A DNA stretch of 64,000 bases from a virus (IMGVR_UViG_3300026078_000024:1-64000), one strand, 5' to 3'; positions 15,802 through 59,133 are shown, counted from the first letter of the stretch. Numbers and translations are program-made. The notes: a model not told the origin generated them from the sequence alone.

Positions 15802-15817
15802 GATCCCTCCTAGGTCG

Positions 15818-15891
15818 TGGTCCCGGTCGGACTCGAACCGACGCGGACGGAGGTTAAGAGCCTCCCGCTCTGCCAACTGAGCTACGGGACC
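15818..15891 (-). tRNA. tRNA-Lys(CTT)
   Basis: GGTCCCG TA GCTC AGTTGGCA GAGC G GGAGG CT-CTT-AA CCTCC ... GTCGG TTCGAGT CCGAC CGGGACC A; CCA not encoded. Confidence 0.92.
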
Positions 15892-16193: not shown

Positions 16194-16232
16194 GATCGTG
16201 ATTCCTTTCGGTCGGTTGTCGATCGTGGTGGG

Positions 16233-16305
16233 TGCCCGCAGAGGGATTCGAACCCCCGGCCCCCGCGTCCGTAGCGCGGCGCTCTGTCCTCTGAGCTATG
16301 CGGGC
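16233..16305 (-). tRNA. tRNA-Arg(ACG)
   Basis: GCCCGCA TA GCTC AGAGGACA GAGC G CCGCG CT-ACG-GA CGCGG GGGCC GGGGG TTCGAAT CCCTC TGCGGGC A. Confidence 0.92.
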
Positions 16306-24962: not shown

Positions 24963-25370
24963 TCACCTCCTACGCGCGCGCGTACGTCCGCGTTCCATCA
25001 CCTTGGCCTCGGTTCTCGTGATCCTCAGAGACCGGACGGCCGCCGCGACGGCCACGGAGCACACCGCCGTGGCGATCAAGAGCGTCTCGATCATGGGGAC
25101 GATCATCACGAGAATGACCGCGAAGATCCCGGCGATGATCGTGAACCCGAGGTACAAGATCATGTACGGGGTGTACTTCGCGAGGGGATCCGGCGGAGGC
25201 GCCACCGGCGCCGGACGCGGCGCCTCGTTGATCGTGATGTTGATGATCGGTCGGCCGCTCTCGACGGCGCGGCGGACTTGATCGCCTTTGAGGTACTCGA
25301 CAAGATCCGGGAGCCGCTCGCGGTACAGCTCCACCGCGTGATCGTTTTCCCGTCCGTCTGCCATGGTCAT
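24963..25370 (-). CDS. Membrane protein (2 TM), possibly Spd-like
   Basis: Long hydrophobic segments, RBS GAGGAG; adjacent to traB. Confidence 0.7.
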   Translation of the reverse strand: MTMADGRENDHAVELYRERLPDLVEYLKGDQVRRAVESGRPIINITINEAPRPAPVAPPPDPLAKYTPYMILYLGFTIIAGIFAVILVMIVPMIETLLIATAVCSVAVAAAVRSLRITRTEAKVMERGRTRARRR

Positions 25371-25465
25371 CTCCTCGTTTCCGGCAGTGAGTGAAGATCT
25401 GAGAGAGCCCAGGTGGGAGGAGGTTCACTGGTCGGTTCACTCCGGGGTCTCACTGGCCATTCACA

Positions 25466-25700
25466 GTTATGCAGAATCATGTTGTACGGCGTAAGCGTTG
25501 ATCCGAATGATCAAGCGCTGACCTGCGAAAACTCTTTTGATCTTAGGGGTGGACCACTTATACCTTGGACCCTAAACGATCTCGTTAGCGGGGCGTACAG
25601 AGGTTTTCTCACCCTACGTGTTGGTAACTTCTCTTATTCTTACGCTGGGCAACCGGATAACCGGTCGGATGGCTGCATAACCATCCGACCGGCGTTGATC
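25466..25700. repeat. ~235-bp non-coding direct repeat, copy 1 (partner 38671-38905)
   Basis: Ungapped offset 13205; identical blocks of 21 bp (25574-25594) and 41 bp (25598-25638); terminal 12-bp hairpin. Confidence 0.9.
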
Positions 25701-27639
25701 AGCCCTCTTCCTTCTCGATCATCGAAACGATCTCGTACTTCGCCGCCTTGCCCGGCACCCGGCGCAGTTCCTTGATCTCTACTCGGCGCGCCAGCTCCTT
25801 GAAGATCCACGTCCGGCTCTTCGGGAGGTCAAGATCGGCGAAGTCGTCCTTGGTCAACTCGGTGACTCCGGAGTCCGCCAGCTCCTTGATCCGCATGGTG
25901 ACAAGATCGCGGGCCTCGTTGTCGGCGTCGGCCGTCTCCACCCCTCCCTTGATCAGATACGGCCGGACGGCCGCGCCGGTGCGGAGGGGAGCCGGAGAAA
26001 GATCCACGTCCTCCGGCGGCTCCGGCCACTCGGGGAACGCGACGGCGGAGGAGACGGACGGCCGGACGGGGAGAGTGATCCCCCGGCTGAGCAGGTCGAA
26101 CGTCCCCGGGTCGCACTTCGCCCACCCGGCGCCCTGGGCCATCTCGATCACGGCCTGGATCTTCTCGTCCGATGCCTTGAAGGTCCGGTGGACCATGGGC
26201 CACTCGTCGGACGGGACCCCCGTGACCTCCTCGTAGTGGCGGCCGGGATGGTTGTTCGCCCACCTCGACGGGTCGGCACCGGCGTTCAGGGTCTCGTCGA
26301 GGAGCGCGAACCGGGCGTCGATCAGTTCACGCACGCCGAACGCGAGGGAGTTGCCGAACTGTGATCGGACTGCCCGGTCGATCTGCCGATAGCCCGCGAC
26401 CTGCAAAGACGCGCTCACCGGCATGCCGAGGGCCCGGCACAACGTGATCGCCTTCTGGAATGCGGGGGAGTTGGCCAGGTAGCCGGATGCCTCCTCCACG
26501 TGGATCGGCTGGACCGGGATCCGGAACCGCGTCCACGCCTCCGGCACCCACCCCTTGTGGAACCCGTGCTGTCCGAGAAGCCGGGCCCGGTACCGCATGG
26601 CGTCCGGCAGGTTGCTGATCAGCTGTGCCGTGTCGTCCGGCCCGTCCGCGTAGAGATCAAAGACGTGCATGACGTGTCCGAAGGACAGCATGAACTTCTC
26701 CGGGTCGGCCACGATCGGCGGGGCGCAGTCCGTCCGGGTGATCATCTCCAGCATCGCCAGGATGAACGCCTCGGTCTTGCCGGACCCCGTCATGCCGGAG
26801 TAGAGGGTCGCGGACGCGGCGCGGGACTGTTCGTCCGACCCGGTGATCCAGTGCCCGGACTCCTGTCCGTCCTCCCGGCGTCCGGTCCGCAGCGGTCCGG
26901 CGGTGATCGACTGTCCGGGCCTGGACGGACCCTCGTACTCGATCACGTCCGTCGTCGGGTTGGTCAGGCGGATGGTCACGCGTGTCTGGTCACCCCGTCC
27001 GTCCACCTCGGACACCCGGACATTGTCCGGTCCGACGGAGTGGAGTCCGGCGATGTTGTCCTTCCGGCGCCGGACGTCCTTCGTGGTGTTCCGTCCGTCC
27101 GGGTGGTTCAAGATGATCTCCACCCGCTTCCCGGCCTTGTCCGTGATCTCCTTCACCTTGCCGGTGACGGTGTTCTTCAGGCCCTTCACCTTGGAGATCG
27201 AATCGACCGGCCCCTCCTTCACCCCGTCGTGCTTGTTGGTCGGCGTGATCCCGGCGTAGCGGATGTTCCACGCCAGGCAGAGGTAGGCGCCCCCGAAGAT
27301 CCACGACCACACGATGGCCGAGGTCAGGGGGCCGAGGGCGGTAGCCAGGGCGAGCCATACACCCATGCCGACCACGAAGGCGGTCGCGGCCAGGCGGGCG
27401 TGTTCGTGGCGGCGCCCCCAGGTCTCCCAGGTCCACCACCCGAGACCGGGGCCCATGGTCGCGAGGAACGCCTGAGCGACCGGCCCGTGGGCGAAGTGGT
27501 GCGTGACCAGCGCCGCAAGGAAGATCAGCCCCATGATCGCCCACGGAGTGAGGAACGGCTGCACCCGGTACCGCAGCGGCAGGTGACGGAGGCGGGTGAC
27601 CTTCACCGAGGTCTCGTCCGTCATGGCGGTCTTGCTCAT
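25699..27639 (-). CDS. traB: TraB-like FtsK/SpoIIIE dsDNA translocase (Streptomyces plasmid transfer type)
   Basis: N-terminal multi-TM region, Walker A SGMTGSGKT, Walker B-like IHVEEAS, 'GADPSRWANNHPG', C-terminal wHTH-like 'KSRTWIFKELARRVEIKELRR'. Confidence 0.8.
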   Translation of the reverse strand: MSKTAMTDETSVKVTRLRHLPLRYRVQPFLTPWAIMGLIFLAALVTHHFAHGPVAQAFLATMGPGLGWWTWETWGRRHEHARLAATAFVVGMGVWLALATALGPLTSAIVWSWIFGGAYLCLAWNIRYAGITPTNKHDGVKEGPVDSISKVKGLKNTVTGKVKEITDKAGKRVEIILNHPDGRNTTKDVRRRKDNIAGLHSVGPDNVRVSEVDGRGDQTRVTIRLTNPTTDVIEYEGPSRPGQSITAGPLRTGRREDGQESGHWITGSDEQSRAASATLYSGMTGSGKTEAFILAMLEMITRTDCAPPIVADPEKFMLSFGHVMHVFDLYADGPDDTAQLISNLPDAMRYRARLLGQHGFHKGWVPEAWTRFRIPVQPIHVEEASGYLANSPAFQKAITLCRALGMPVSASLQVAGYRQIDRAVRSQFGNSLAFGVRELIDARFALLDETLNAGADPSRWANNHPGRHYEEVTGVPSDEWPMVHRTFKASDEKIQAVIEMAQGAGWAKCDPGTFDLLSRGITLPVRPSVSSAVAFPEWPEPPEDVDLSPAPLRTGAAVRPYLIKGGVETADADNEARDLVTMRIKELADSGVTELTKDDFADLDLPKSRTWIFKELARRVEIKELRRVPGKAAKYEIVSMIEKEEG

Positions 27640-28484
27640 GATGCGCGTCCCTTCTCGAACCTCTTCCGTGCGACGTAAAAGGTGTTGTCCGGCGTGCCGG
27701 GGTGGAGCTTCCGCATGGCCTCGTACAGATCGTCATTCGGCGCGTCCGGGTGGTCCGTCAGGTACTGCCGGACGTCCGACGCGGGGGAGCCCCGGCCTAT
27801 GTCCGGTGTCCGGGCGGACGCTCCAGCCGTCCGGTTCGCGGCGTCCGTCTCGGCGTGTCCGGTCCACGTGGCCATGTCCGGCGTCTCGTGTCCGGTCCAC
27901 GTGACCATGTCCGGCGCGGTGTCCGGCGCGGTGTCCGGCGCGGTGTCCGGCGCGGTGTCCGGCGTCTTGACCGGCCGCTTGTCAGCTTTCGGACGTGCTG
28001 TCCGGCGCACCTTCGGCGCGGCGGCGCCCATGTGCAGGAGATGTCCGAACACGGCGGCCGGGATGCAGCTCACGATGATCGTGAGAATGAACCGGTGTCC
28101 GGTGATCAACTGCTGCTCGTAGAGGTGCGCGACCGGCTGCGCGGCCATGGCCACCAGGATCGACAGAACGGCCCCTGTAACGGCCGTCATCCGGCCCGGC
28201 GCCCCTTTGGGCCGCTTGGTGGCCACGACGGCGGAGATGCCCGCGTAGGCCGTCAGGGCGGCCGGTGTGAGCCACGCCATGCCCCTGGTCCATCCGGCCA
28301 TGACTCCGAGGTAGTGCTCACCCGGGGCACACATGACCAGGATCATCACTGCGACAACGGGACGGCCGACGTCGAGCATGAGGGTGACCCACCAGGGGTC
28401 ATGATCGTCACGTCCGTTCTGACGCTGTTCGATCTTGTCCTTCAGCCACCGGACGAACCGGCGCGTCCTCGTTTCGGTGTCCAT
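27636..28484 (-). CDS. Spd-like (DUF2637-type) membrane protein with PDTA repeats and a C-terminal HTH-like segment
   Basis: 4 TM with 'EHYLGVMAGW...AWLTPAAL..YA', '..CIPAAVFGHLLH'; coupled to traB by an ATGA overlap. Confidence 0.75.
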   Translation of the reverse strand: MDTETRTRRFVRWLKDKIEQRQNGRDDHDPWWVTLMLDVGRPVVAVMILVMCAPGEHYLGVMAGWTRGMAWLTPAALTAYAGISAVVATKRPKGAPGRMTAVTGAVLSILVAMAAQPVAHLYEQQLITGHRFILTIIVSCIPAAVFGHLLHMGAAAPKVRRTARPKADKRPVKTPDTAPDTAPDTAPDTAPDMVTWTGHETPDMATWTGHAETDAANRTAGASARTPDIGRGSPASDVRQYLTDHPDAPNDDLYEAMRKLHPGTPDNTFYVARKRFEKGRAS

Positions 28485-28780
28485 GATCCCAGTTTGCCTA
28501 TCTTTTGGTCGGTCCAATGAACGTCCACTGTGGCACGAAAATGTCCGGCCGTCCAACTGACGGCCGGACATTGTCCGTTGTGGCTGGTCAGCGTGTCAGG
28601 GATGCCTCCCGGTCCGCTGCGTCCCGCGAAACGAACTGATCTACGAAGGACATGATGTCCGGCACGGTGTCCGGGTCGGCGGACACCCCGGGGAGAGCGG
28701 ACACGGCCTGACGGAGAGCCTCGCGGGCGGACATGATGTCCGGCGCATGGGCGATCGTCCGGCGCGCGGCCTCTGTCCGG
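27686..28780. repeat. Cluster of 18 same-orientation TGTCCGG motifs (candidate clt/TraB-recognition locus) plus a 14-bp inverted repeat at 28540-28572
   Basis: Counted by eye at 27686, 27800, 27807, 27856, 27875, 27889, 27908, 27920, 27932, 27944, 27956, 27999, 28096, 28542, 28656, 28668, 28737, 28774. Confidence 0.7.
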
Positions 28781-28827
28781 CGCGCATGCTTCGCGGCCAC
28801 GTCCGCGAAGACTTGATCTCTGCTCAT
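28588..28827 (-). CDS. Small hypothetical protein
   Basis: ATGA overlap with the upstream GT2 gene. Confidence 0.6.
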   Translation of the reverse strand: MSRDQVFADVAAKHARRTEAARRTIAHAPDIMSAREALRQAVSALPGVSADPDTVPDIMSFVDQFVSRDAADREASLTR

Positions 28828-29486
28828 GATCCCGGCTTTCCGGCTGTTGAGTTGGGATTTACCATCCAGTACCAGGTGCGCTGATCAAGGTGCTCGAACA
28901 CCGCCCCGGCGTCCAGGAGATTGATCAAGTACCGCTCGTCCTCACCCTGGTACCGGCCGTTGTCCAGGGTGCGGCCCTCGGGGAAGCCGCCGACGCGGCG
29001 CACGGTCTCGGTCCGCACGAGGTGCGTGATCGGGATGAACGATCCGACGTGCTTGATGTGCGCGGCCATCTCGGGAGTGAACCTGAGTCCCCACGGAGAG
29101 ACCGGGAACCGGCCTTGATGGGTGACGGCCGTCGGGTCCCTCCCGTTGACCATCTGCGGCCGGGGGTAGACAAGATCGACAGCAAAGCTGTTCTCGATCA
29201 CCCGCATGCACGCCTTGAGGTGGTTCGGCCGGAGCCAGTCGTCATCGTCCAGCCAGGCGATCACGTCCGACTCGACCCGCTCCAGGAGACGGTTCCGGGT
29301 CGCGGCGGCGCCGGTGCGGTCCTTGTCGACCTCGATCAAGAACTGGTCCGGCTGCCGGTCCTGCTTCATCACGCTCATCTCGGCGCGCATGAGGTCGACC
29401 TCGCGGCCGGGCAGGGTTGGAATGCATACGGCCACCGTGAGGTGCCTCGGGTTGGGCCGGTTCCCCCGGCGCTTCGCTTCACCCAT
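28824..29486 (-). CDS. Family 2 (GT-A) glycosyltransferase
   Basis: VAVCIPT, GAAATRN, AWLDDDD, VGGF, GEDE. Confidence 0.88.
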   Translation of the reverse strand: MGEAKRRGNRPNPRHLTVAVCIPTLPGREVDLMRAEMSVMKQDRQPDQFLIEVDKDRTGAAATRNRLLERVESDVIAWLDDDDWLRPNHLKACMRVIENSFAVDLVYPRPQMVNGRDPTAVTHQGRFPVSPWGLRFTPEMAAHIKHVGSFIPITHLVRTETVRRVGGFPEGRTLDNGRYQGEDERYLINLLDAGAVFEHLDQRTWYWMVNPNSTAGKPGS

Positions 29487-29706
29487 GATCTTCCTTACTT
29501 CCCGAACCGGACGGCCTGGCACACCGGGCACGGACAAGACGGTACGGGGGTCCCGACGTCTCCGATGTGGCCGGACCATTCCAAGATCTCTGCGTTGTAC
29601 GCGTCCCTGATCGCCTGGTTGAACTCCCGGGCGGTCATGACGCGGCGGCTCCGCCGGGCATGCCTGGCGGCACGGTCCGGCGACGTCCACCTGATGATCG
29701 TCCGGG

Positions 29707-30297
29707 TCACCACATATCACCCCGTTGGAGCATGATTGCGTTTCGGGCCGCGCTCCGGTTCGCGTAGCCAACCTCTTTGGCTACTTGATCAAATGTCATC
29801 CCTTGATCCCTGAGTTCCACGGCCTTGATCCGTTTGAGTTCCAGCTCTCGTCTGTGTGGTGCAGGCTCCCCCACTCGGCGGCACGCACGGCAGAACTTCT
29901 TTCCGCGATGCCAGTACGTGTTCGCCTCGTCGTAGGCATGACCCCGGAGACATTGATCGACTGGCCCTGATCTTCCGGCCAGATCGTTTTCCCGGTGGGT
30001 AGCCAGCCGCATGTGACGTTTCCAGTTCATGCACATCCGGTGCGGGCAGGTACTCCCGCCCTCGCACTCCGGATCTTCGTTGTGGCATGTGTGGTCGACT
30101 TCGAGTCCCTCCGGGATCTCGCCGACCATGAGCAGCCAGGCTGCTTTGTGGGCACCCACGTAATGACCACGGAGCCAGAAGTTCCCGTAACCGTGGCCTG
30201 TCTTGGCTCCGATGAACGGCCAGCAGGCATCCGGCCCGCCCGATTGATCAATCTTGGACAGGAGACGCGCTCTGTCGTCCCCGGTGATCCTTACCAT
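29707..30297 (-). CDS. HNH homing-type endonuclease with C-terminal HTH
   Basis: CWPF.G....GYG...AHKAAW...EVDHTC...CMN...EN; CLRGH...CRAC. Confidence 0.85.
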   Translation of the reverse strand: MVRITGDDRARLLSKIDQSGGPDACWPFIGAKTGHGYGNFWLRGHYVGAHKAAWLLMVGEIPEGLEVDHTCHNEDPECEGGSTCPHRMCMNWKRHMRLATHRENDLAGRSGPVDQCLRGHAYDEANTYWHRGKKFCRACRRVGEPAPHRRELELKRIKAVELRDQGMTFDQVAKEVGYANRSAARNAIMLQRGDMW

Positions 30298-30890
30298 CTG
30301 TCTCCCCGGCCGCTCGTATTACCAGGATGCCAATGATAATACCAAGTGCGCTCGTTCAGATGGTGGAACGTCGCCCCGGCGTCCAGGAGCTTGAGCCACA
30401 ACCCCCATTCGTCGCATGGGCTCGCGCCCGGCTCCCTGCTCTTGTTCCGGTCCTCGAACCCGCCGACGGACATAGCCAGCTCGGTACGAACCAGGAGAGT
30501 CACCGGAATGTAGTTCTGGATCTTCCTGAGCGCATGCTCGTTGAACGGTTGCCCCTCGTACTCCGGGAAAGGATCCCACCCGGACGGCACGGTGAACCAC
30601 GGATAGATCACATCGGCGCCGGACTCCTGTGCGGCCCGTAGCAGAGATCCAATGTGCCCCGGGCGCAGTGTGTCGTCGTCGTCCAAAAACGCAGTCCATT
30701 CGGTCGTCACGCCAGCGAGAGCCCGGTTTCTGGTGATGGCCGAACCTTCATGCGCCGTATCCACAGCAATGCTGATCCCGTCCACCGGATGTTCTTGCCG
30801 GAGAACGGAATCCATCGCCCTGGGCAGAAGGGTACGGGCCCGGGGCGGGATGCTCGGAGTGACCACGGTCACACCTGGCCTGTAGATCAC
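30291..30890 (-). CDS. Family 2 glycosyltransferase
   Basis: VTVVTPS, GSAITRN, AFLDDDD, VGGF, DEWGLWL. Confidence 0.88.
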   Translation of the reverse strand: MIYRPGVTVVTPSIPPRARTLLPRAMDSVLRQEHPVDGISIAVDTAHEGSAITRNRALAGVTTEWTAFLDDDDTLRPGHIGSLLRAAQESGADVIYPWFTVPSGWDPFPEYEGQPFNEHALRKIQNYIPVTLLVRTELAMSVGGFEDRNKSREPGASPCDEWGLWLKLLDAGATFHHLNERTWYYHWHPGNTSGRGDRW

Positions 30891-31020
30891 GGCTTCCTCC
30901 GGTCCTTGATGTCCCGTGCGACAAGACCGGCGATCGCCCCCAGGCAGACACCGATCACTCCCATCACGATCAACCCGAGGACCGGGCCGTAGAAGCCGGT
31001 GAAGTAGTCGATCACGGCGG

Positions 31021-32280
31021 TCACAGTTTCCTCCCCAGGCGGATCAAGGTAACGCCGGACTGGTCGACGATGATCCCCGTCGGATCGATGACCACGGATC
31101 CGGGGGCGAACCGCAGAGACCGGAACTCCTCATGCCCGCATCCGATCACGAACACCGACCGGTGCTGGACCACCTCCGGGTTCCAGTGATCGTCAGTGTG
31201 CGGGTCCGTGGTATAGACCGGCACGATCTCCGCGAGTTGCTGGAAGAGAAGGAGCGCGGCCGACCCACCGGCGAGATCACTGCCCGGCCGGTACGCGTTG
31301 CCGAGGATCACCACGGGAAGGTCGGTGAGGGCGTGGTAATCGATCGCGAGGGACGCGATCCACGACGACTGCGCCTCCCGCGCCCTCTGGAGGAACCCGA
31401 AGATATCGGCGGAGAGATCCAGCCGGTCGGCGAGATGCGACATGGCCACCACGTCCCGGGGGTGGCAGTACCCGCCTCCACCCATGCCGCCCTTGAGATA
31501 CCTCCGGCTCATCAGGTTCGTGGTGGCGAGGGCGAGGGTGGTGGAGACGTCGTCCACGTCCGCGCCGGTCTTCTCGGCCAGCTCCAGCATCGTGTTCGCG
31601 AAAACGATCTTCATGGACGTGTACGTGTTGTACGCGACCTTGGTCAACTCCGCCGACGGGATCCTCATGGTCCTGATCGGCCGGGAGTGCAAGGACGTGT
31701 AGATCTCCGTCACCGCGAGGGCGTCCTCGTAGGTGTCGGCACCCACGATCACGAACTCCGGGTTGAGGAGATCGTCGGCCACAGACCCGAGGGAGATCAG
31801 GGACGGGGTGTAGACCAGTCGGGTGTGATCGTTGAGGAGCGGCCGGAGCAACCTGTCGCACGTGCCGGGGAGCACTGTGGAGATCACCGCGATCGTGATC
31901 GTCTTGTGTGCCATGTCGGCCGCGCGCGCCAGCGACCGGACGGCGTTGATCAGGTAGGCGTAATCGAAGTCGCGCCGGGTCTCGGGGTCGAGGTTCGGCA
32001 CGGTCCCGTCGAGGTGCGCCGGGTGCGGAGTCTGCACCGCTACAAAGATCGTGTCGGCGTTCGCGACGAGGGTCGCCGGGTCGTTGACGACGTTCATGCG
32101 GTTCAGGGCGAGGAGGTTGTCGATCTGTACCTCCTGCGGCGGCACGGCCTTGCCGGAGATGATGTCGAGGGGGTGCCGGGACATGTCGCACCCGGTCACC
32201 CGGTGTTTCCCGTGGACGTCGAGAACGAGGGCAAAGACGAGGCCCAGCTTCCCGAGACCGAGGACACCGACGTCAGCCAT
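31021..32280 (-). CDS. UDP-glucose/GDP-mannose 6-dehydrogenase family protein
   Basis: GLGKLG Rossmann, AVQTP, STVLPG, AELTKVAYN, GGYCHPRD. Confidence 0.92.
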   Translation of the reverse strand: MADVGVLGLGKLGLVFALVLDVHGKHRVTGCDMSRHPLDIISGKAVPPQEVQIDNLLALNRMNVVNDPATLVANADTIFVAVQTPHPAHLDGTVPNLDPETRRDFDYAYLINAVRSLARAADMAHKTITIAVISTVLPGTCDRLLRPLLNDHTRLVYTPSLISLGSVADDLLNPEFVIVGADTYEDALAVTEIYTSLHSRPIRTMRIPSAELTKVAYNTYTSMKIVFANTMLELAEKTGADVDDVSTTLALATTNLMSRRYLKGGMGGGGYCHPRDVVAMSHLADRLDLSADIFGFLQRAREAQSSWIASLAIDYHALTDLPVVILGNAYRPGSDLAGGSAALLLFQQLAEIVPVYTTDPHTDDHWNPEVVQHRSVFVIGCGHEEFRSLRFAPGSVVIDPTGIIVDQSGVTLIRLGRKL

Positions 32281-32282
32281 GG

Positions 32283-33041
32283 TCAGTCCTTCCGGGTGAG
32301 GATCGCGGCGCAGTACCGCCGGTCCGGGGTGAGGTAGTCGAAGTCGGTGATCGTGAACAGGTCTCCGAACCGCCGGTCGAGCTTCTCGCGGTCGTACCAC
32401 GTGGCGTAGGTCCCGGTACCGTCGAAGAACCGCACGAATTGATCGAACTTCTCGTGCTCCTCCACCGGCTCCCGGGGCGGCTCGGTGCCGGTGGCGATCC
32501 TCCAGCCCTCGTCGCTGTAGACCATGAGCCGGATCTTCCCGTCCGGAGCCAGCATGAGATCGAACATTTCCATGGTCAGGCGGGCCTTGCGGATGTGGTG
32601 CAGCACCCCGCAGCAGTGGATCTCGTCGTACGTGTCGGTCAGGGCATGGATGTACGGCCACTCTTCAGTGATCTTGTACATGTTCTTCGGGCCCCGGCCG
32701 GTCTCCAGACTCATCACGTGCGCGGCCAGTTCCACGTTCGCGGAGGACAGGTCGGCGATCGAGACGATGGCGCCGGTCCTGGCGATCTCCGCCGCTTCCA
32801 TGCCCACCCCGCAGCCGTACTCCAGCACCCGTTGCCCGTACCGGTTCTCGTCCAGTGCCATGTAACGGCGCCACAGGCCGTCGTGGTTGCGCCAGCCGGT
32901 GTAACGGGTCTGGCGCATACGCTCGATCACTTCGTGAAGGTGATCATCGTTCCACGTGAGCATCTCGGCGGACGAGAGATACCCGACGTCGTCCACCGGC
33001 GGCAGGGACCATGCAGTCACGGTGTCGGCCCACTCGGTCAT
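32283..33041 (-). CDS. Class I SAM-dependent methyltransferase
   Basis: VLEYGCGVG, ADLS, GVLHHI, LAPDG. Confidence 0.88.
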   Translation of the reverse strand: MTEWADTVTAWSLPPVDDVGYLSSAEMLTWNDDHLHEVIERMRQTRYTGWRNHDGLWRRYMALDENRYGQRVLEYGCGVGMEAAEIARTGAIVSIADLSSANVELAAHVMSLETGRGPKNMYKITEEWPYIHALTDTYDEIHCCGVLHHIRKARLTMEMFDLMLAPDGKIRLMVYSDEGWRIATGTEPPREPVEEHEKFDQFVRFFDGTGTYATWYDREKLDRRFGDLFTITDFDYLTPDRRYCAAILTRKD

Positions 33042-34309
33042 GACTTCCCCACGATCTCGAAGTGCGGCAAAGGAAAGATCATCCGGCCGCCGTTCTTCAG
33101 GTAGTCGGCTTCCCGTTCGAGGAACACGGACCGGAAGAACCACGGGGAGATCAGGAGGTACTCCGGGTGGACGGCCCGCATGCCGGACTCATCCATGATC
33201 GGAATCCCGGTCGCGGACATGATCTTTCCGACCTTGGCCGGTGACCGTTCCACGGCGTACGGCAGGAGATCCGGCCCGGCGTCGATCATCTGGAGGAACG
33301 TCCCGCCCCGGGTGGACGCGCCGTACAGATAGACCGTCTCGCCCCGGTCGGCCGCCTTCTCCAGGAACGCCCGGGTGAGATCGAGTTCCTGCTTGACCGA
33401 CCGGCCCCACTCCTGCCACACCTCCGGTCGTTGCAGCCCCTTGATCACCTCGGTCTCGTACACGTCCTGCACGCTGGCCGACTGCGGCCGGTCTCCGATG
33501 CGGGACACGGCCGTCCGGATGCACCCGCCGTTGACGGACGAGAAGGTGACATCGTTGATCTCCAGGCCGTGACGCTCCAGGAGGATCATGAGGGGGAGGA
33601 GCGCGAAGTACGTCACGTGTTCGTGGCACACGTTGTCGACTGCGTTCCGGCGGAGCATGTCCCCGGCGTAGTTCTGCTGAATGATCCACACCCCGCCGGG
33701 GGCGAGGCACTGCTCCACCCCGTGGACGAACCGGTTCGGATCATCGAGGTCGTAGAACATGGACACGGACGTGATCACGTCGAACTCGCCGGGCTGGAAG
33801 AACCGGGGAGAAAAGTAGTTGTAGATCACCCGGTCGGCCGCGCCGGTCCGGCGCGCGTCCCGGGCGATCACGTGGACCGGGTCGATCCCCGTGCGGGTGA
33901 TCCCTGCCGGGACGTGACTGAGGAGGGTCCCGTCGTTGCAGGCGATGTCCAGCCACCGGCGCGGGTCGTGGCGGAAGGCGAGGGCGTAGTCGACCACGTC
34001 TTTGAGGTCCCGGACGATCGCCTCGTTCGTGCCGGACCGGAAGCCGTATCGATCATGGTAGAGCTTCTCGCGCGGCGTCGACTCCCCGAGCTGAAGAAGG
34101 GTGCAGTCGAGGCAGATCTTGAGCTTGAGGGGGTACGTCTCGGCGTCCGACCGGTAGTCGTCCGGGTCCACGAAGTCGGGGAGGCGGTGATTGCCGAGAT
34201 CGATCACGTCCACGAGGTGGAGGGAGCCGCAGGACCGGCACACCACCCCGGGAACGCCCTCAATCAACGCCTGCATGTTCCGCAGGCCCGCATCCGTGGT
34301 CTTGCTCAC
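33038..34309 (-). CDS. NDP-hexose C-methyltransferase (zinc-binding N-terminus)
   Basis: CRSCGS..IDLG, YPLKLKICLDCTLLQL, LDIACNDGTLL, HEHVTYF, NGGCIR, YGASTRG. Confidence 0.88.
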   Translation of the reverse strand: MSKTTDAGLRNMQALIEGVPGVVCRSCGSLHLVDVIDLGNHRLPDFVDPDDYRSDAETYPLKLKICLDCTLLQLGESTPREKLYHDRYGFRSGTNEAIVRDLKDVVDYALAFRHDPRRWLDIACNDGTLLSHVPAGITRTGIDPVHVIARDARRTGAADRVIYNYFSPRFFQPGEFDVITSVSMFYDLDDPNRFVHGVEQCLAPGGVWIIQQNYAGDMLRRNAVDNVCHEHVTYFALLPLMILLERHGLEINDVTFSSVNGGCIRTAVSRIGDRPQSASVQDVYETEVIKGLQRPEVWQEWGRSVKQELDLTRAFLEKAADRGETVYLYGASTRGGTFLQMIDAGPDLLPYAVERSPAKVGKIMSATGIPIMDESGMRAVHPEYLLISPWFFRSVFLEREADYLKNGGRMIFPLPHFEIVGKS

Positions 34310-35196
34310 TGGCTCCTCCAGTAGCTCATGACGTCGGACAACATGGAATGCAGGGAGGTGGTCGGCCGCCAGCCGGTCACCGTCTTGATCTTCGCGTTGC
34401 TCGGGACCGGCCAGACCTGCGCGTCCCGGTGGACCAGGAGCGGATCTTCCTTCAGCTCGATCTCCGCCGTGGACATGCTCGCGAGGGTGTGCATGACGTG
34501 TTCCATGGTCACGTTGTTGGCCGAGCACACGTTGTAGATCCCCGGCTCCGCGTCGATCACGGCCGCGTATGCCTGCACCACGTCCCGGACCGAGGTGAAG
34601 TTGCGGTACGCGGAGAGATCACCGTGTGAGACGAAGTCGGCGTGGCCCCGCTCCACGGCCACGATCCGGCGCGCGAAAGACGACTCCGCGTTCGCCGACT
34701 GGCGGCCCCACCCCGTATGGTTCCAGGCCCTCGTGCAGACGACGTGCATTCCGTACCGGCGCGCGTACGCCTGACCGGCCGTCGTCGCCCCCAGCTTCGC
34801 CGCTCCGTACGGCGTGGTCGGGAAGCATGGGGACAGCTCGGTGATGATCTCCGCCCCGTCCGGCCGCTCGTATCCGTACTCCTCCGACGTGCCGGTGATC
34901 AGGATCCTCGCGTGTGCGCCGGTGGTCCGGACGGCCTCCAGGGTGTTCAAGGTTCCGCCCACGTTGACGTCGAACACCCGGCGCGGATTGCGGAGCGACT
35001 CTCCCGGCCACGAGACGGCTGCCAGGTGGAAGATCTTGTCAGGCTGGAACTCGCTGACCATGTGCCGGACGGTCTCGAAGTCGCGGACGTCGCACGCGGC
35101 GAGGGTGCACCCCTGAACGGTGTGCCCCTGGTTCTCCAGCAGCTTGCGGAGGTGAGGCCCAACGAAGCCCCCCGCGCCCGTGATCATTGCTTTCAC
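34306..35196 (-). CDS. GDP-mannose 4,6-dehydratase/reductase-like NAD-dependent epimerase (extended SDR)
   Basis: TGAGGFVG, HLAA, TSEEYG, PYGAAK, NHTG, RNF..VRDVV. Confidence 0.9.
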   Translation of the reverse strand: MKAMITGAGGFVGPHLRKLLENQGHTVQGCTLAACDVRDFETVRHMVSEFQPDKIFHLAAVSWPGESLRNPRRVFDVNVGGTLNTLEAVRTTGAHARILITGTSEEYGYERPDGAEIITELSPCFPTTPYGAAKLGATTAGQAYARRYGMHVVCTRAWNHTGWGRQSANAESSFARRIVAVERGHADFVSHGDLSAYRNFTSVRDVVQAYAAVIDAEPGIYNVCSANNVTMEHVMHTLASMSTAEIELKEDPLLVHRDAQVWPVPSNAKIKTVTGWRPTTSLHSMLSDVMSYWRSQ

Positions 35197-35903
35197 TGCG
35201 CCGCCTTACTGATCGCGTTCATGAGCTTCCCGACGTCTTCCTGACGTTTCGGAAACAACTGGTTCCACAGTTGATCGACATTGTCTTGGCTGTGCCGTGC
35301 CAGTCGATCTTGGTGGGTTTGATCGAGCGGGCCTTTGCCGACGGCGGGATGTAGATGTTCGGTGAACACGTCCGGGAGGAAGTGCAACCGGCCGACGCCC
35401 TGCGCCACCTGGTGGAGCCAGAGATCGTTGTAGTCGGACGAGAAGTACGGCGGGACGAAGTACCCGACGGCGTCCACCCAGGCCCGGGTGATGAACCCGT
35501 GAGTGGCCAGATTCTGATCATGGATTCCGTCGCGGCCGTAGACGAGCCCGATCTTGTCCGGCCAGAGATCGAACGCCTCCCGTACCCGGATGTCCCAGTG
35601 ATCGGTGCGGTAGACCGTCTCGTCGCACGAGTGCTGCATGATCATGCTGCTCTCGTCGGCGATCGCATAGCACTCGTTCCACAACTGGGAGAGGTTCAAT
35701 GTGCCCCGGGGCCCGTGGGTCCAGAACACATCCCCGCCCTCGTTGTGCAGCGTGATCGCCATGTCCCGGGAGGGGGTGTCATCATCGTCGATGTAGAACA
35801 CGTACTCCACCCGGTCACCGCACGTGACCCGGCCGGAGTCGACCATGCGTCGCATGTTGTGCGGACGGCCGCGCGTCGGCACGAGGACACTGATCACGGG
35901 CAT
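35193..35903 (-). CDS. Family 2-like glycosyltransferase
   Basis: ISVLVPTRGRP, YIDDDD, WNEC, YNDLW, EHLHP. Confidence 0.82.
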   Translation of the reverse strand: MPVISVLVPTRGRPHNMRRMVDSGRVTCGDRVEYVFYIDDDDTPSRDMAITLHNEGGDVFWTHGPRGTLNLSQLWNECYAIADESSMIMQHSCDETVYRTDHWDIRVREAFDLWPDKIGLVYGRDGIHDQNLATHGFITRAWVDAVGYFVPPYFSSDYNDLWLHQVAQGVGRLHFLPDVFTEHLHPAVGKGPLDQTHQDRLARHSQDNVDQLWNQLFPKRQEDVGKLMNAISKAAQ

Positions 35904-36133
35904 GGACTCCCCGTCTCGGCCGTCCACAGGGTCTCGTTCGTCCCCTGATCGATGCACCGCTTCGCCTCCCCGGCCTCCCGGAGACGGAAGAGGGAGAGGT
36001 AGGCGAGTTGGGGGGTGATGTCCAGGGCGGCGGCGATCTCGTTCCGGGAGGCCATTCTGTGATCTTTCAGGTACGCCTTGACCGCCTTGTCCCGGTCCAC
36101 CACGTCCTGCGGCCGTGTTCCCTTCCAAGCCAT
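35894..36133 (-). CDS. Small winged-HTH protein
   Basis: SRNEIAAALDITPQLAYLSLFRLREAG. Confidence 0.7.
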   Translation of the reverse strand: MAWKGTRPQDVVDRDKAVKAYLKDHRMASRNEIAAALDITPQLAYLSLFRLREAGEAKRCIDQGTNETLWTAETGSPCP

Positions 36134-36245
36134 GTGTGGCTCCTGTTCTTTCGCTTGGTTCGATCATACGACATGGGGGAGCCCGCGCCGGGGAGCTGGG
36201 AGAGTCACTCCGGCACGGGCTCATCATGGACGCGCACGAACCATA

Positions 36246-37190
36246 TCAGGGAGCGTAGCGGTAGCACGTCAACCATGAAGTCAGCACGTCCACCGAAGAT
36301 CCCTTGGCGGCGTACGCACCGGCCAGCGCGGATTCGTTCTGGAGCACCCAGTCCGCCCGGTCCGGGAAGTCGGCGTGCACCGTCTTGAAGAGCTTCCCGT
36401 CGTAGTAGAACCTCACCGAATTCGGCACGATCTCCGTGCTGTAGGTGTGCCATCCGGTCCAGGCGGCGTTACCGGCGGCGTCACTGCCGGACTCGGCGAA
36501 CCCGTGAGTGAACTCGCTGATGGGATCACTATCGAAGTTGCCCCCGGCCTCGGGGTAATCCACCTCGTTCGGCGTGTAGCGCAGGTGCGCCATTTTGTAC
36601 CCCGGCGTCCGTGCCGAGACGCGGAAGCGCTCGGTGAACTTCCCGTATCGCAGACCCATGCACCGAAGGGGAACGGGAGCGGACACGTGGTTGGAACCAC
36701 CGGAGGACGAACGCCACATGTGGACCCGCATGATCCCGTCACCGGTGGACGATTTGACGACGCTGATCGTGGTGGGAGGGTCGTACCACCCGCCGAAGGT
36801 CCGGTCGTTCCCGTTGGAGTGGTTCGTGGGGTTGGCGGTGTCTCCCCACCCGTTGGGATAAGCGCCAAGGGTGGCGTAGTAGTGGGGGTAAGCAGACTTG
36901 AGCCCTGCACACCGGAAGTCCCCGTCTCCGGCGCAGTGGTTGAACGCCCCGAGGGGGACAGAAGCGACCACGCCACCGGGGTTGAAGCTATCCCGGTAGA
37001 GCTGGTGGAACGGTCCGCAGTTGCCGACGGGGGTTGCGTTGTTCGTTGTGTGGCATGCGTCCTGGCTTGGGGTGACCGCTCCGGCGGGGGAGGGCCCCAG
37101 AAAGAGGGCACCGACAAGAGCCAGCACCCCCATCACCCCCGTGATCAGATAGCGCCACTTCGGACGGCGGCGCGCGTGCTTGCCGGTCAT
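36246..37190 (-). CDS. Secreted GH16-like glycoside hydrolase
   Basis: Basic plus hydrophobic signal peptide; YGKFTERFR, EVDYPE (ExDxxE), WHTYSTE, FYYDGK. Confidence 0.75.
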   Translation of the reverse strand: MTGKHARRRPKWRYLITGVMGVLALVGALFLGPSPAGAVTPSQDACHTTNNATPVGNCGPFHQLYRDSFNPGGVVASVPLGAFNHCAGDGDFRCAGLKSAYPHYYATLGAYPNGWGDTANPTNHSNGNDRTFGGWYDPPTTISVVKSSTGDGIMRVHMWRSSSGGSNHVSAPVPLRCMGLRYGKFTERFRVSARTPGYKMAHLRYTPNEVDYPEAGGNFDSDPISEFTHGFAESGSDAAGNAAWTGWHTYSTEIVPNSVRFYYDGKLFKTVHADFPDRADWVLQNESALAGAYAAKGSSVDVLTSWLTCYRYAP

Positions 37191-38670: not shown

Positions 38671-38905
38671 GTTATGCGGTCTCCTCGTTTACGGTGTATG
38701 GGTTGATCCGATTGATCATGTCTTGACCTGGGCAAATCCCGCTCAGCACCACCCCTATCCACTCATAGGGGGGACCTCAAACGATCTCGTTAGCGGGGCA
38801 GCCAGAGGTTTTCTCACCCTACGTGTTGGTAACTTCTCTTATTTTCACGCTGGGTGTCCGGATACCCGGCCGCATGGACGCATATCCATGCGGCCGGGTG
38901 TGGAT
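38671..38905. repeat. ~235-bp non-coding direct repeat, copy 2 (partner 25466-25700)
   Basis: Identical blocks 38779-38799 and 38803-38843; terminal 14-bp hairpin with compensatory changes. Confidence 0.9.
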
Positions 38906-48815: not shown

Positions 48816-49052
48816 ATGGACTTTCTGACGTGGTGCCGGTCGAGCGACCGGTGGCGTTCGCATGCATGGGCCAATGATCGTCGTGTCCGGCTGCCCGCAG
48901 ACACCCCCGAGACCCGGGAGGCGTACGAGGAGACCTTCGTCTCCGCCGGGTACGGCGGATACCTGCACCGGCTCGCGGAGGAGACGGTGCACACCGGGTC
49001 GTCCGCATGGGCGGAGTACGTCACGGCCATGGGTGCGGAGGGCGGCTCATGA
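48816..49052 (+). CDS. Hypothetical protein
   Basis: RBS GAAAGG; ATGA overlap with the primase-polymerase gene. Confidence 0.55.
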   Translation: MDFLTWCRSSDRWRSHAWANDRRVRLPADTPETREAYEETFVSAGYGGYLHRLAEETVHTGSSAWAEYVTAMGAEGGS

Positions 49053-52000
49053 CCACGGATGCGGAGATCGCTCAGCAGAACGGTCATGTGGAGGGGGCTC
49101 AGGAGAGGGTCCTCGACGCCCTCGGGCACCCGTTCTCCCCCGAGTCGCTGCGAGTGCTGGCGGAGTCGGCGATCACACCGGAGACGGCGGCACGGTACGG
49201 GATCACCGCCGTGGCGGATCCCGATCACATCCCTGACGAGATCTTCGGATCGTGGCACGCGTTCCTCGGCGAGGCCGAGACCGGCATGATCTTCACCTGG
49301 CGGGACACCGACCGGGAGATCCCTCAGTACCGTCCGGACGTGGCGGTGCAGACGCCGGACGAGAAGATCCACAAATACCTCGTCCCGCGCGACTCCGGCA
49401 CCTTCCTCAACCATCTGCGGAACCCCGTCGGCCCGGACGACCCGGTGTTGTTCGTGGAGGGGTCGAAGCAAGGCGTGGCTGCGGCAGCGTGGGCCCCGGA
49501 GGGGTGGGGGGTTGTGGCGGTACCCGGGTGCAACAACTGGGTCGGCACAGACCTCTCATGGGCCGACGGCCGCAAGGTGATCATTCTCTTCGATGCGGAC
49601 TTCACGTCGAACCGTGACGTGTACGACGCGGCAGCCGGGCTGAAGGAGGCGCTGGAGGTCGAGGGCGCGGCGGAGGTGCGGTTCGCGCATCTCGCCGGGG
49701 CACGCAACAAGGACGGTCTCGACGACGTTCTCGGACGGCGGCCGGAGAACCGGCGGACCCTGTACATCGAACGGATCGCCGACATGGCGGCCGACCGTCT
49801 CGGACGGCGGCCCACCCGTTCCGTGCGCGCATCCGCGTATTTCGACGAGAAGGGCCTGTTGGCCCGGACGTCCGCCCTCACCGTTCTCGGCAATCAACCG
49901 GCGGCCCTCGCGGACGGATCCATGATCGCTCTGTACCGGGACGGCGTGTACCGGATCGATCTCGGGGACGAACCGCTGATCGAACAGGTCAAGGATCTCC
50001 TGGGTGAGGACTACCGGCCCGCGCACCGGAAGACGATCGAGGAATATCTCGTCGGCGAGCTGTCCGGTCGAAACCTCCGGGTCGGGCAGAGGTCCACGGA
50101 ACCGCTCCTGAACACCGCGTCGTGCATGATCGACCTCCGCACCGGCGAGGTACTGGATCATGATCCGAAATACCTGAGCACGTTGCAGATCCCGGTCCCG
50201 TGGGTGCCGGACGCGGCGTGTCCGACGTACGAGGCGTGGCTTGAGGACGTGATCCCCGGCCAGGCCGAGGCACTGGAGGAACTCGCGTCCACGATGCTCG
50301 ACCCGTCCCGGACGCCCTTCAAGGCGGCGTTCCTCTACGGGCCGACGCACTCCGGCAAGTCGACGTTCCTGCGGATCATGGAAGCGGTCGCGGGTGCGGC
50401 GAACCGGTCGGCCGTCGATCTCCACCAGCTCGTCGATGATCATTTCATGTCTGCCGAGCTGTATCAGAAGATCTTGAACATCGGGTCCGACATGTCAGCC
50501 GCCCACATCTCCGACGTCTCCCTGTTCAAGAAACTCACCGGCGAGGACCCGGTGCAGGCGAACCGGAAATACGGCCGGACGTTCACCTTCACGAACCGCG
50601 CCCTGTTCGCCTTCTCCGCAAACGAGATCCCCACCGTCGGCGAGACCTCCCGGGCGTACGTGCAACGCATGATGCCATTCCACTTCTTCAACTCGTTCGC
50701 CGGTAACGAACGGCCGGAAATTGAAGAGCGGATGCTCCGCGAGGAACTCCCGGGGATTCTCCGCCGCTGGGTCTCGGCGTGGCGCCGGTTCTCCGAACGC
50801 GGGATCTACCTACCGGTTCCGGAGGACGTGCAGACGGAGTTCGAGACGTCGAGCGACCGAGTCGCCCGGTGGGTGCAGCTCCGGTGCGACGTGCACCCCG
50901 AGGCAATCGGGCAGATGGTCGGCGCGGACAAGGGAGAGACGATCTCCGCTCTCTACTCCTCATTCAAGATCTGGGCGAGGGAGGACGGACCGGCAAACGT
51001 CATGTCACGGCAGAAGTTCTCGGAGCGTCTCCGGCGCATGGATGGGGTCGGGGAGGTACGTCTCGCGCACCGGAACAAGAACCGGGGTCTGAACATCACC
51101 ACGCGGACCGGAGAGGACCGGGAGATCGTTCATGTCCGTTCTGCCCCAGTGACTGACGGAGATGACCGGAATGCCCCGGTGACTGACGCGGATGACCCGA
51201 AGGCTTCCGGTACTGACGGAGATGACCGGAATGCCCCGGTGACTGACGCGGACGCACCAAATGAACCGGTGTCTACCAAGAACGTACGGAATGACAGCAA
51301 TGTCGGTGTCCGTTCTGCCCCAGTCTCTACCGGAAACGTGACGGTTCGTCCCGGTGTGGGTGTGGGTGGTGTTGGTCGAACCCCGGTAAAGGGCATAGCA
51401 GTGGTTCAGAACAAGATCAACGATCTTTCCTCTGAAACTCCCTCATGGACCGAATTCTCTGATAAGACCCACACCGCCAACACCGCCCAGGTCAGAGATG
51501 GTTCTTATACTCACACCGAAGTCACACCCCCCAGGTCAGGGGCCACACCAAGACCCACACCGGGGCAAACCGGTACATCTCCGATAGACACTGGGGCAAA
51601 ACCGGACACCCCCGCTCCCGCGCCCCCCGACAAGACAGGACCGGCCGTGACTTCGAAAACACCCACACTTCCCACACCCCCCAGGTCAGAGCACTGCCCC
51701 GACCCGTTCGCCGACCACACCCCGCCTCCGTCCGCCGTGCCGGTGGGTCTCGACCTGGAGGCATGGGACGCGGAAGATCTCTTCCGTCACGACACCCCGG
51801 TCCTCGGTCCGTACGTCCGTCTCGTGGGTGCCGGTCCGGTCGGAGACGTGGCCACCGGTCGCGCGGAGGTTCTCGAACGCATCCGGGGAGACAACCCGAT
51901 CGTGGGCGTGAACCTCGCCCTGTTCGATCTCCCCGCCCTTGACGTGCACGAGGGGATCCCGGTGGAGGAGACGATCCCCCGGGCGCATGACATCCGGTTC

Positions 52001-57690: not shown

Positions 57691-58079
57691 CCAAGGTTCT
57701 CGGAGAACGCACGAGCGCCCCGATCAAGGCGGCGGATCTCGACGTGATCGACGTCGACAACCTCGCCCGGCCGGTGCGCTACACCACCAAGGAGCTGAAC
57801 GCCCTCTGCCCGGTCACCGGCCAGCCGGACCAGTACGAGGTGATCATTCAGTACGACGCGCCGGGGAAGACGATCGAGTCCAAGTCCCTGAAGCTCTACC
57901 TCTGGTCGTTCCGGGACCGGGGGATCTTCGCGGAGGATCTCGCCGCGACGATCGCGAAAGATCTCTGCAAGGCGTTGCGGTTCCCGGTCCGGGTGCATCT
58001 CACGCAACAGGTCCGGGGCGGGTTGGTCCTGGAGGTCGACGCGTTCGGAGAACCGGTCATGGGGAGTGACGACGTATGA
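57687..58079 (+). CDS. queF: preQ0 reductase (preQ1 synthase)
   Basis: LCPVTGQPD, ESKSLKLY QueF motif, RGG. Confidence 0.9.
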   Translation: MTKVLGERTSAPIKAADLDVIDVDNLARPVRYTTKELNALCPVTGQPDQYEVIIQYDAPGKTIESKSLKLYLWSFRDRGIFAEDLAATIAKDLCKALRFPVRVHLTQQVRGGLVLEVDAFGEPVMGSDDV

Positions 58080-58759
58080 AGGCGATCATCTGTTTCTCCG
58101 GCGGGATGGACTCCACCGTCCTCGCCACGTCGTACCTCCACCAGGGGTACAAGCTGGGCCTGTTGTCGTTCGACTACGGGCAACGCCACAAGGCGGCCGA
58201 GCTGGCGGCCGGTGCGCGCGTCGCCGGGTATCTCGACAACCTCGGCATCGCGCCCGTGTCCCGCCAGGTGGTCGATCTCGGGGTCCTCGGGGATCTCCTC
58301 CCCGGTTCCGCGTTGACGGATCCGGAGGTCGACGTGCCGGACGGGCATTACGCGGCCGAGACGATGCGCGCCACCGTGGTCCCGAACCGCAATGCGATCA
58401 TGGCGAACATCGCGATTGGGGTTGCGTCGGCGGTGGAGGCGGACGTGATCGCCCTCGGGATGCATGCCGGGGACCACGCGATCTACCCCGACTGCCGACC
58501 CGAGTTCGTCCGGGCGTTGCGTCAGACCATGGTCCACGCCCTCAAGGGGTTCCACACCCCGCGTCTCGACACGCCGTTCATCGGCATCAGCAAGACCAAC
58601 ATCGCCCGCCTCGGGGACACCCTCGGCGCGCCGGTGCATCTCTCCTGGTCCTGCTACAAGGGCGGCGATTTGCACTGCGGCACCTGTGGCACGTGCACAG
58701 AGCGCAAAGAGGCGTTCAAGGACGCCGGTGTCCATGATCCGACGGAGTACCTGGCGTGA
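58076..58759 (+). CDS. queC: 7-cyano-7-deazaguanine synthase
   Basis: SGGMDS, FDYGQRH, VPNRN, YPDCRPEF, SCY..CGTCGTC.ER. Confidence 0.97.
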   Translation: MKAIICFSGGMDSTVLATSYLHQGYKLGLLSFDYGQRHKAAELAAGARVAGYLDNLGIAPVSRQVVDLGVLGDLLPGSALTDPEVDVPDGHYAAETMRATVVPNRNAIMANIAIGVASAVEADVIALGMHAGDHAIYPDCRPEFVRALRQTMVHALKGFHTPRLDTPFIGISKTNIARLGDTLGAPVHLSWSCYKGGDLHCGTCGTCTERKEAFKDAGVHDPTEYLA

Positions 58760-59133
58760 GCTACACGATCTGCAAGACGTTCCGGTTCGAGGCCGCGCAC
58801 CAGTTGCACGGCCTCCCGCCGGACCACCAGTGCGCCCGGATGCACGGCCACTCCTACCGGATCGACCTGGAACTCACTGAGTTGGGTGCCGAGTTGGACT
58901 ACCCCGGGTTCGTGGTCGACTTCGGGCGCCTGAAGCCGTTCAAGGAGTGGATCGACAAGACCCTCGATCACCGCGTCCTGAACGAGATCCTGCCGGTCGA
59001 ACCGACAGCGGAGAACCTCGCCGCATGGATCTTCTCCGTGGTCGAGATCGCCCTCCCGGAATGGATCTCCGGCAAGGTCGCGGCCGTGAGGGTCCACGAG
59101 ACCGAGACATCCTGGGCGGAGTACCGGCCGTGA
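58756..59133 (+). CDS. queD: 6-carboxy-5,6,7,8-tetrahydropterin synthase
   Basis: FEAAH.L, CARMHGHSY, VVDFG, LDHRVLN, PTAEN, ET. Confidence 0.97.
   Translation: MSYTICKTFRFEAAHQLHGLPPDHQCARMHGHSYRIDLELTELGAELDYPGFVVDFGRLKPFKEWIDKTLDHRVLNEILPVEPTAENLAAWIFSVVEIALPEWISGKVAAVRVHETETSWAEYRP

Follow-up and report, generated by a model that had tools for sequence, protein, structure and literature searches.

The TraB cassette and its surroundings

We analysed a 64,000-nucleotide stretch of viral DNA (IMGVR_UViG_3300026078_000024:1-64000; hereafter the window), which forms the first two thirds of a 92,877-base-pair (bp) IMG/VR record that we call G000, and focused on positions 24,963–28,827. This region holds a set of co-oriented genes for a TraB-type pump of double-stranded DNA (dsDNA) and two membrane proteins, accompanied by a dense array of a 7-bp word (Table 1). 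From the sequence alone, an earlier note on this DNA had described a Streptomyces plasmid-type conjugation module in a tailed phage, with TraB, Spd-like proteins and clt-like repeats, and had suggested a dual virion/conjugative lifestyle. Our results partly support that interpretation: the module is real, native and conserved, and the step at which the repeats are recognized probably differs from the plasmid model. Related loci and records compared with G000 are designated by L-numbers (for example, L004, L012 and L046).

Table 1 Features of the TraB cassette and its repeats, in window coordinates
Feature	Position	Strand	Remarks
Small membrane protein, family F2	24963..25370	minus	135 aa; 1–2 transmembrane (TM) segments; conserved downstream partner of traB
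Non-coding spacer after traB	25371..25698		328 nt; 10-bp hairpin at 25663–25690, just past the traB stop
traB, putative TraB-type membrane-anchored dsDNA translocase	25699..27639	minus	646 aa; N-terminal helices, beta domain, FtsK-type ATPase, linker, winged helix
Palindrome CCGGACA-T-TGTCCGG	27016..27030		Built from the array motif; inside traB
Membrane partner gene, family F3	27636..28571	minus	Probable start ATG 28484, 282 aa
Main repeat array	27686..28102	plus	13 co-oriented TGTCCGG copies; inside the 3' half of the partner gene
Perfect 14-bp inverted repeat	28540..28572		5-nt loop, two motif copies; between orf79 and the partner gene
orf79	28588..28827	minus	79 aa; four more co-oriented motif copies (28656–28780)

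A putative plasmid-type TraB pump

TraB carries hydrophobic segments near its N terminus (residues 28–46, 84–102 and 105–123), and an AlphaFold2 model (mean predicted local distance difference test score (pLDDT) 75) has four long helices at residues 22–130 and a disordered linker before the C-terminal domain. Foldseek searches with this model returned FtsK motor domains as the best matches (6t8b, E = 9e-13), followed by TcpA and EccC, and the Walker A residues G282, G285, G287 and K288 (G282–K288) as well as E382–E383 are invariant across 26 homologues. Folded alone (pLDDT 80), the C-terminal domain adopts a helix-helix-helix-strand-strand arrangement whose fold matches, all weak (best E = 8e-3), are solely to winged helices. 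The domain order of membrane anchor, FtsK-type motor and winged helix is thus as the earlier note had described it, and a membrane-anchored motor of the FtsK family is probably hexameric.

By sequence comparison, the protein is closer to the conjugative TraB of Streptomyces plasmids than to generic FtsK, in agreement with the plasmid-type assignment of the earlier note. The NCBIfam profile NF041214 (plasmid_TraB) matches with E = 7.7e-95 and 318.7 bits, over profile positions 4–477 only, and tblastn against a plasmid collection yielded 50 records, all of them actinomycete plasmids (25–33% identity) and many with the matching gene annotated as traB. A further match was found to phrog_24831 (E = 6e-52). 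The Pfam family FtsK_SpoIIIE was not matched at E = 0.01, and a sequence search of the PDB gave nothing beyond chance TALE matches. At these scores, the phage protein is a distant relative, not an equivalog, of the NF041214 plasmid TraB.

Approximately 50 homologues with 41–98% identity to TraB were found, many on contigs of 80–88 kilobases (kb), and 32 IMG/VR contigs of 29–99 kb (most 55–99 kb) carry a relative. Searches of species-representative genomes found no relatives, and tblastn with TraB and megablast with 20 kb of the window both returned zero matches in a phage collection that may lack records close to the window; megablast against the plasmid collection was likewise empty. We built a maximum-likelihood tree that included six plasmid TraBs (pWTY27, pJV1, pSN22, pCQ3, pRL1 and one Amycolatopsis plasmid), with the Tra protein of pZL12 added and chromosomal FtsK left out. 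Within this sampling, 30 phage TraBs formed one clade (Shimodaira–Hasegawa-like approximate likelihood ratio test (SH-aLRT) 97) that stood apart from the six plasmid TraBs and was placed as their sister. Since the phage proteins are monophyletic and separate from those of plasmids, the tree indicates that traB was acquired once, long ago, and has been retained, making it an old component of this phage lineage.

In a temperate subclade of the relatives, one to three small stand-alone paralogues of the TraB C-terminal winged helix flank traB on both sides (L012:10187–10579, L012:5275–5739, L015:4246–4569 and equivalents). These match NF041214 at positions 557–634, within the last 80 positions of the profile.

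Membrane partners and conserved gene order

Both membrane genes of the earlier note are present as it had stated, the upstream one with a stop codon that overlaps the start codon of traB (ATGA), indicating translational coupling. The start of this partner gene is probably the ATG at 28484, because a hairpin occupies 28540–28572. Its product has three or four hydrophobic or TM segments, a linker rich in Pro, Asp and Thr, and a conserved C-terminal domain of ~50 residues; the membrane core is kept in 13 phages with 31 invariant residues. No match to the partner protein was found in Pfam or, by tblastn, in plasmids, and hhalign gave a probability of 0.1% for its alignment with DUF2637-type proteins, which occupy the same position in three relatives. 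The sole link of the partner to SpdB2/DUF2637 is a language-model lead (0.91), and we rejected membership in that family for G000 on the Pfam, tblastn and hhalign results. What stands of the 'Spd-like' label is therefore place and topology (a coupled gene, 3–4 TM segments), which make the partner an Spd analogue.

The downstream F2 protein has a strong hydrophobic segment (residues 76–94 of 135), and its gene follows traB in nearly all of 31 related loci. It has no match in Pfam, PHROG or NCBIfam; weak language-model leads point to DUF6251 and 'SpdD' (0.81–0.82). Across these loci the cassette has a conserved order: F3 partner, a TraA-like gene in most relatives (matching NF041213 with E = 3e-10), traB, sometimes a small winged-helix paralogue, and F2. 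On the plasmids pJV1, pSN22, pCQ3 and pWTY27, traA immediately precedes traB, and in pWTY27 a DUF2637 gene lies two genes further upstream.

The spacer behind traB includes, at 25465–25692, a copy of an AT-richer, non-coding element of ~110–230 nt that is dispersed in the genome, its copies sharing 74–87% identity. Others lie at 38671–38897 of the window and at 73593–73701 (minus strand) and 91963–92160 of the genome. Two direct copies bracket a 13-kb block made up of the TraB cassette and sugar-modification genes. An Rfam search of the segment from 24.0 to 29.5 kb produced no match.

A repeat array selected at the DNA level

The 18 co-oriented TGTCCGG copies in 1.1 kb that the earlier note had counted were confirmed on the plus strand between 27686 and 28780, together with one inverted copy at 28564. 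Of the 54 copies in the 92.9-kb genome, 19 fall in this stretch, where 0.64 would be expected (Poisson P = 8e-22). A 12-bp tandem (×4.8) and a 33-bp tandem (×2.3) form part of the main array. Eleven copies are read in frame as Pro-Asp, five of them in tandem where they encode TAPD repeats (TAPD ×4), and the motif also occurs in the other two reading frames (PD, TGH and RT in all), in two genes and in the intergenic hairpin.

We held the partner protein sequence fixed and redrew synonymous codons from the phage's own usage in 2,000 rounds. The partner gene contains 13 motif copies compared with 4.1 ± 1.5 after resampling, and no round reached 13 (0/2000). Off-frame copies, which require the rare codons GGA and ACA, number five as opposed to 0.3 expected, and orf79 has four copies where its protein sequence would predict 1.46 (P = 0.001). 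Because the count exceeds that of synonymous resampling, and because copies lie in all frames, in a second gene and in the hairpin, the repeats are selected at the DNA level and are not a by-product of the encoded peptide repeat.

The perfect 14-bp inverted repeat reported by the earlier note was also confirmed. Read on the minus strand, it gives a hairpin with UUUU behind it; a folding energy of −37.4 kcal/mol (z = −4.8) was calculated for the 76 nt around it, and a promoter-like minus-strand match (28599–28570) overlaps the repeat.

To look beyond G000, we scanned the 3 kb before traB in the 31 related loci for enriched k-mers, without presupposing a word. A strongly enriched short word was found in all 31 (P = 1e-8 to 1e-71 in most). 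It has a GGACA core, preceded by C, G, A or T, in 25 loci and is GAGACG in three, CGAAAGC in two and GCTCAGC in one. The copies in these relatives occupy coding as well as non-coding DNA and are found in both orientations, frequently forming two opposed blocks, and extra copies 250–750 bp into traB recur in relatives too.

The repeat word follows the membrane partner

The existence of four word classes allowed us to ask which protein changes along with the word. The TraB winged helix is probably not the specifier: L012 and L020 have identical TraB recognition helices and yet carry GGGACA and CGAAAGC arrays, respectively, and the word class switches at least four times on the TraB tree. For the stand-alone winged-helix paralogues (family F5 and small F0 members), no pattern was seen. 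The word class does track the last ~50 residues of the membrane partner, with four of four independent contrasts concordant. Partner tails of the 'DTK-x-NSI-x-KAI-x-RA' type accompany GGACA words, and a tail weakly similar to HTH_17/excisionase accompanies GAGACG in L008, L023 and L032, despite two different membrane domains. A third type of tail goes with CGAAAGC (L015 and L020), and a tail with a clear helix-turn-helix (Sigma70_r4_2, E = 3e-6) goes with GCTCAGC (L019). A metagenome scan added nine loci, too few for further contrasts between word and domain.

This pattern suggests that the C-terminal domain of the partner, rather than the winged helix of TraB, is the main reader of the array. 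Because the word follows the former and not the latter, the notion that TraB itself binds these repeats appears doubtful.

L046 is a metagenome relative whose TraB is 98% identical to that of G000. Its traB DNA is likewise 98% identical, whereas the partner gene and array (27640–28700 in the window) are only 84% identical, with indels and a poorly aligning array. The partner/array segment thus looks like a local hot spot of divergence or exchange, and the L046 pattern fits modular exchange.

Phage lineage and lifestyle

CheckV estimated the 92,877-bp record to be 100% complete. The window has a GC content of ~65% and carries genes for a tape measure protein, an endolysin, a helicase, an exonuclease and a primase fused to a polymerase, along with QueC/QueE-type genes and numerous glycosyltransferase genes. 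Counterparts of 39 of its proteins, with gene order preserved, occur in pS1D4-14.2 from Streptomyces sp. S1D4-14 (NZ_CP041606.1; loci L038 and L039), a 98.8-kb linear replicon that was deposited as a 'plasmid' and carries genes for portal, major capsid, terminase and tape measure proteins as well as for an integrase, ParA and an XRE regulator. Judged by its phage genes, the complete record and this synteny, the window comes from a tailed phage, as the earlier note had proposed, and from a lineage infecting filamentous actinomycetes. As a complete tailed-phage genome in its own right, pS1D4-14.2 offers a cultured candidate for work on the TraB cassette.

Profile searches of G000 returned no match to ParA-type proteins (PF13614), tyrosine integrases (PF00589) or serine recombinases (PF00239), and the records of its nearest complete relatives (L004 and L005), one of which has terminal repeats, had no tyrosine integrase or ParA-type match. 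In the other, temperate subclade an integrase is present, in some members (pS1D4-14.2 and the L022 record) together with ParA. The TraB cassette is therefore kept in phages both with and without recognizable lysogeny genes, which favours a role in the infection cycle or a carrier state over plasmid mating alone.

Other features of the genome

Directly upstream of the cassette, a long minus-strand run (28824–37190) contains glycosyltransferases, a UDP-glucose/GDP-mannose dehydrogenase-type gene and related genes, as well as an HNH endonuclease gene (29707–30297) flanked on both sides by glycosyltransferase genes. A single open reading frame of 1,485 aa at 49007–53464 fuses primase and DNA polymerase I, which are two separate genes in the related Streptomyces phages Xkcd426, TP1604 and Geonosis. 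QueC-like and QueE-like genes (58076–60529) point to 7-deazaguanine modification of the phage DNA, and two phage tRNA genes, for Lys(CTT) and Arg(ACG), were located at 15817–15891 and 16231–16305.

Comparison with known systems

On Streptomyces plasmids, TraB binds clt repeats and pumps dsDNA, and TraB together with clt is sufficient for plasmid transfer, while spreading within the mycelium requires SpdB2, SpdB3 and Spd79. To our knowledge, Streptomyces-type conjugation is the only system that moves unprocessed dsDNA between cells by a single pump. The phage cassette shares several features with the TraB–clt regions of pSVH1, pJV1, pSN22 and pWTY27: the pumps are homologous and their domains are arranged alike, most of the phage relatives have a TraA-like gene immediately before traB, the membrane genes are coupled, and short repeats cluster beside the pump gene. 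It differs from them in that its TraB has only 25–33% identity to those of plasmids and falls in a separate clade, and in that the host replicon is a 93-kb tailed phage. A GntR-type TraR is encoded beside traB in pJV1 and pSN22, whereas none is annotated in pS1D4-14.2, and no search for TraR was made in G000.

The repeats were called clt-like by the earlier note, a comparison that holds for a dense, conserved array next to traB and falls short on two counts. The clt of pSVH1 and pWTY27 lies at the 3' end of traB, while the phage array lies upstream, in and around the partner gene; and in the plasmid model the TraB winged helix reads clt, whereas the phage word does not track that domain. The phage also has ~20 repeat copies compared with four to nine in plasmid clt loci. 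Such loci are themselves known to vary in word and place (PMC3583192).

SpdB2 and the phage partner are both multi-pass membrane proteins whose genes adjoin and are coupled with traB. In contrast to SpdB2, the G000 partner has no DUF2637 sequence or profile similarity and has a long linker with a swappable C-terminal domain that co-varies with the word. Homologues of SpdB2 in the phages phiC31 and VWB have been suggested to aid the spread of phage DNA (Thoma et al., PMC4447253). Short oriented guide words of 8 bp also direct FtsK (FtsK-orienting polar sequences, KOPS) and SpoIIIE (SpoIIIE recognition sequences, SRS), pumps of the same superfamily with a winged helix. KOPS and SRS are distributed chromosome-wide and read by the gamma domain of the pump, whereas the phage words are confined to ~1 kb and seem to be tied to a separate membrane protein.

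A literature search turned up no report of a tailed phage with a pSVH1-type TraB. The idea of a dual virion/conjugative phage is nevertheless not new in principle, pZL12 being the precedent: as recounted in PMC3583192, Zhong et al. (2010) showed transfer of this plasmid-phage with its tra gene and two neighbouring genes. Like G000, pZL12/phage ZL12 (GQ919031) is a Streptomyces tailed-phage genome of ~90 kb with an FtsK/SpoIIIE-type transfer gene and adjacent membrane genes. Unlike G000, in which neither ParA nor an integrase is recognizable, it encodes ParA, ParB and an integrase, and its Tra protein (pZL12.71c) sits on a very long branch of the TraB tree and has no tblastn match to the phage TraB. 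We rejected the window as a relative of pZL12, since just four weak protein matches connect the two.

Discussion

Homology, fold, conservation, selection on the array at the DNA level and the co-variation of word and partner domain lead us to lean towards reading the cassette as a phage-owned, TraB-type system of dsDNA translocation that would move phage DNA across hyphal walls independently of virions. DNA binding, pumping and biological purpose, which we infer from these observations, could be combined as follows. TraB would be made together with its multi-pass membrane partner, from the gene upstream, and the small membrane protein, from the gene downstream. The ~20 copies of the 7-bp word (CCGGACA on the gene strand) would mark phage DNA as substrate, as the clt locus does on plasmids, and the C-terminal domain of the partner would read the array and keep the DNA at the membrane beside the pump. 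TraB could then drive phage genomes, whether replicating or resident, across the cross-walls within hyphae of a filamentous actinomycete or into hyphae in contact with them, so that neighbouring compartments might be reached from one infection without virions.

A more specific and more tentative version, to which we assign a clearly lower probability, extends to a clade of large actinophages, some of them without recognizable lysogeny genes. In these, a plasmid-derived TraB might move replicating genomes through cross-walls during infection, with an array-reading membrane adaptor selecting the substrate by means of its exchangeable C-terminal domain.

Several observations weigh against the proposed translocation system. 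At 318.7 bits, TraB scores far under the equivalog cut-off of 800 for NF041214, the phage TraB clade sits on a long branch, and the subclade of G000 lacks the TraA-like gene found in most relatives. No homology to SpdB2/DUF2637 is detectable in the partner of G000, nor does its C-terminal domain match a known DNA-binding family. The hairpin may simply terminate transcription or serve as an operator. Only four contrasts (sign test P = 0.125) underlie the co-variation of word and partner domain, which is confounded by physical linkage because the 3' half of the partner gene contains part of the array. Linkage alone could produce such co-variation, and the adaptor model is accordingly held as an inference.

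Among the other explanations, we would give most room, while thinking it rather unlikely, to maintenance instead of spread: a centromere-like or tethering array bound by the partner, with TraB pumping the genome of a phage in a carrier state (plasmid-like or pseudolysogenic) through the septa of vegetative growth or sporulation, so that all compartments and spores receive it, and no horizontal transfer between individuals. FtsK-family pumps clear DNA from closing septa, and dense arrays of 7–8-bp words in both orientations are typical of centromeres; several relatives have two opposed word blocks, the arrays track a membrane-anchored putative DNA binder, and the relative pS1D4-14.2, which has ParA and an integrase, is on record as an extrachromosomal replicon from a Streptomyces isolate. 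However, a carrier state is not evident in G000 and its nearest complete relatives, which have no recognizable ParA or tyrosine integrase (nor, in G000, a serine recombinase), and the pump is most closely related to conjugative TraBs rather than to the segregation pumps of chromosomes. The same missing profiles for ParA, integrase and recombinase count against true intermycelial conjugation of a plasmid-prophage, in which the array would be the clt of TraB and virions a second route. That reading can draw on the precedent of pZL12, as summarized in PMC3583192, on the plasmid record of pS1D4-14.2, on a temperate subclade with an integrase and sometimes ParA, and on a traA–traB order like that of plasmids; since the word is independent of the TraB winged helix, and G000 is unrelated to pZL12 (four weak protein matches, with an extremely distant Tra), we regard it as unlikely.

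Roles that involve no transfer seem more improbable still. The cassette could act in superinfection exclusion, defence, lysis timing or DNA replication and processing, with the repeats as regulatory sites of the operon: FtsK/HerA-type ATPases occur in defence systems and SIR2-HerA is among the weaker fold matches of TraB, the hairpin overlaps a promoter-like site, and FtsK-like genes of other Streptomyces phages have been guessed to act in replication (PMC11536984). Against this, ~20 co-oriented sites over 1.1 kb of coding DNA go far beyond the needs of an operator, the homology is specifically to conjugative TraB and TraA, and the cassette is conserved in phages of different lifestyles. Least probable of all, and by our estimate very nearly dismissible, is that the repeats are a mere side effect of a low-complexity protein linker with no role as DNA. 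The in-frame Pro-Asp copies and the TAPD tandem would fit such an origin, but there are more copies than synonymous resampling yields, those out of frame depend on rare codons, further copies lie in a second gene and the intergenic hairpin, and the arrays of relatives use different words, in both orientations and in non-coding DNA.

We thus return to the phage-owned translocation system. That the cassette is old, monophyletic and conserved in a lineage of 55–99-kb tailed phages, some without recognizable lysogeny genes, points to a second, virion-free route by which phages of filamentous bacteria may spread within or between mycelia. The link between word and partner domain provides a concrete, testable hypothesis on substrate choice, for which S1D4-14 with pS1D4-14.2 offers a cultured system; if correct, it would represent a two-protein scheme of clt recognition that has not been described for plasmids. 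Virion-free movement from cell to cell in a multicellular bacterium would follow a logic comparable to that of plant-virus movement proteins, and, if such movement occurs, it would revise the view of plaque formation, of the containment of phages by cross-walls and of horizontal gene flow in soil actinomycetes.

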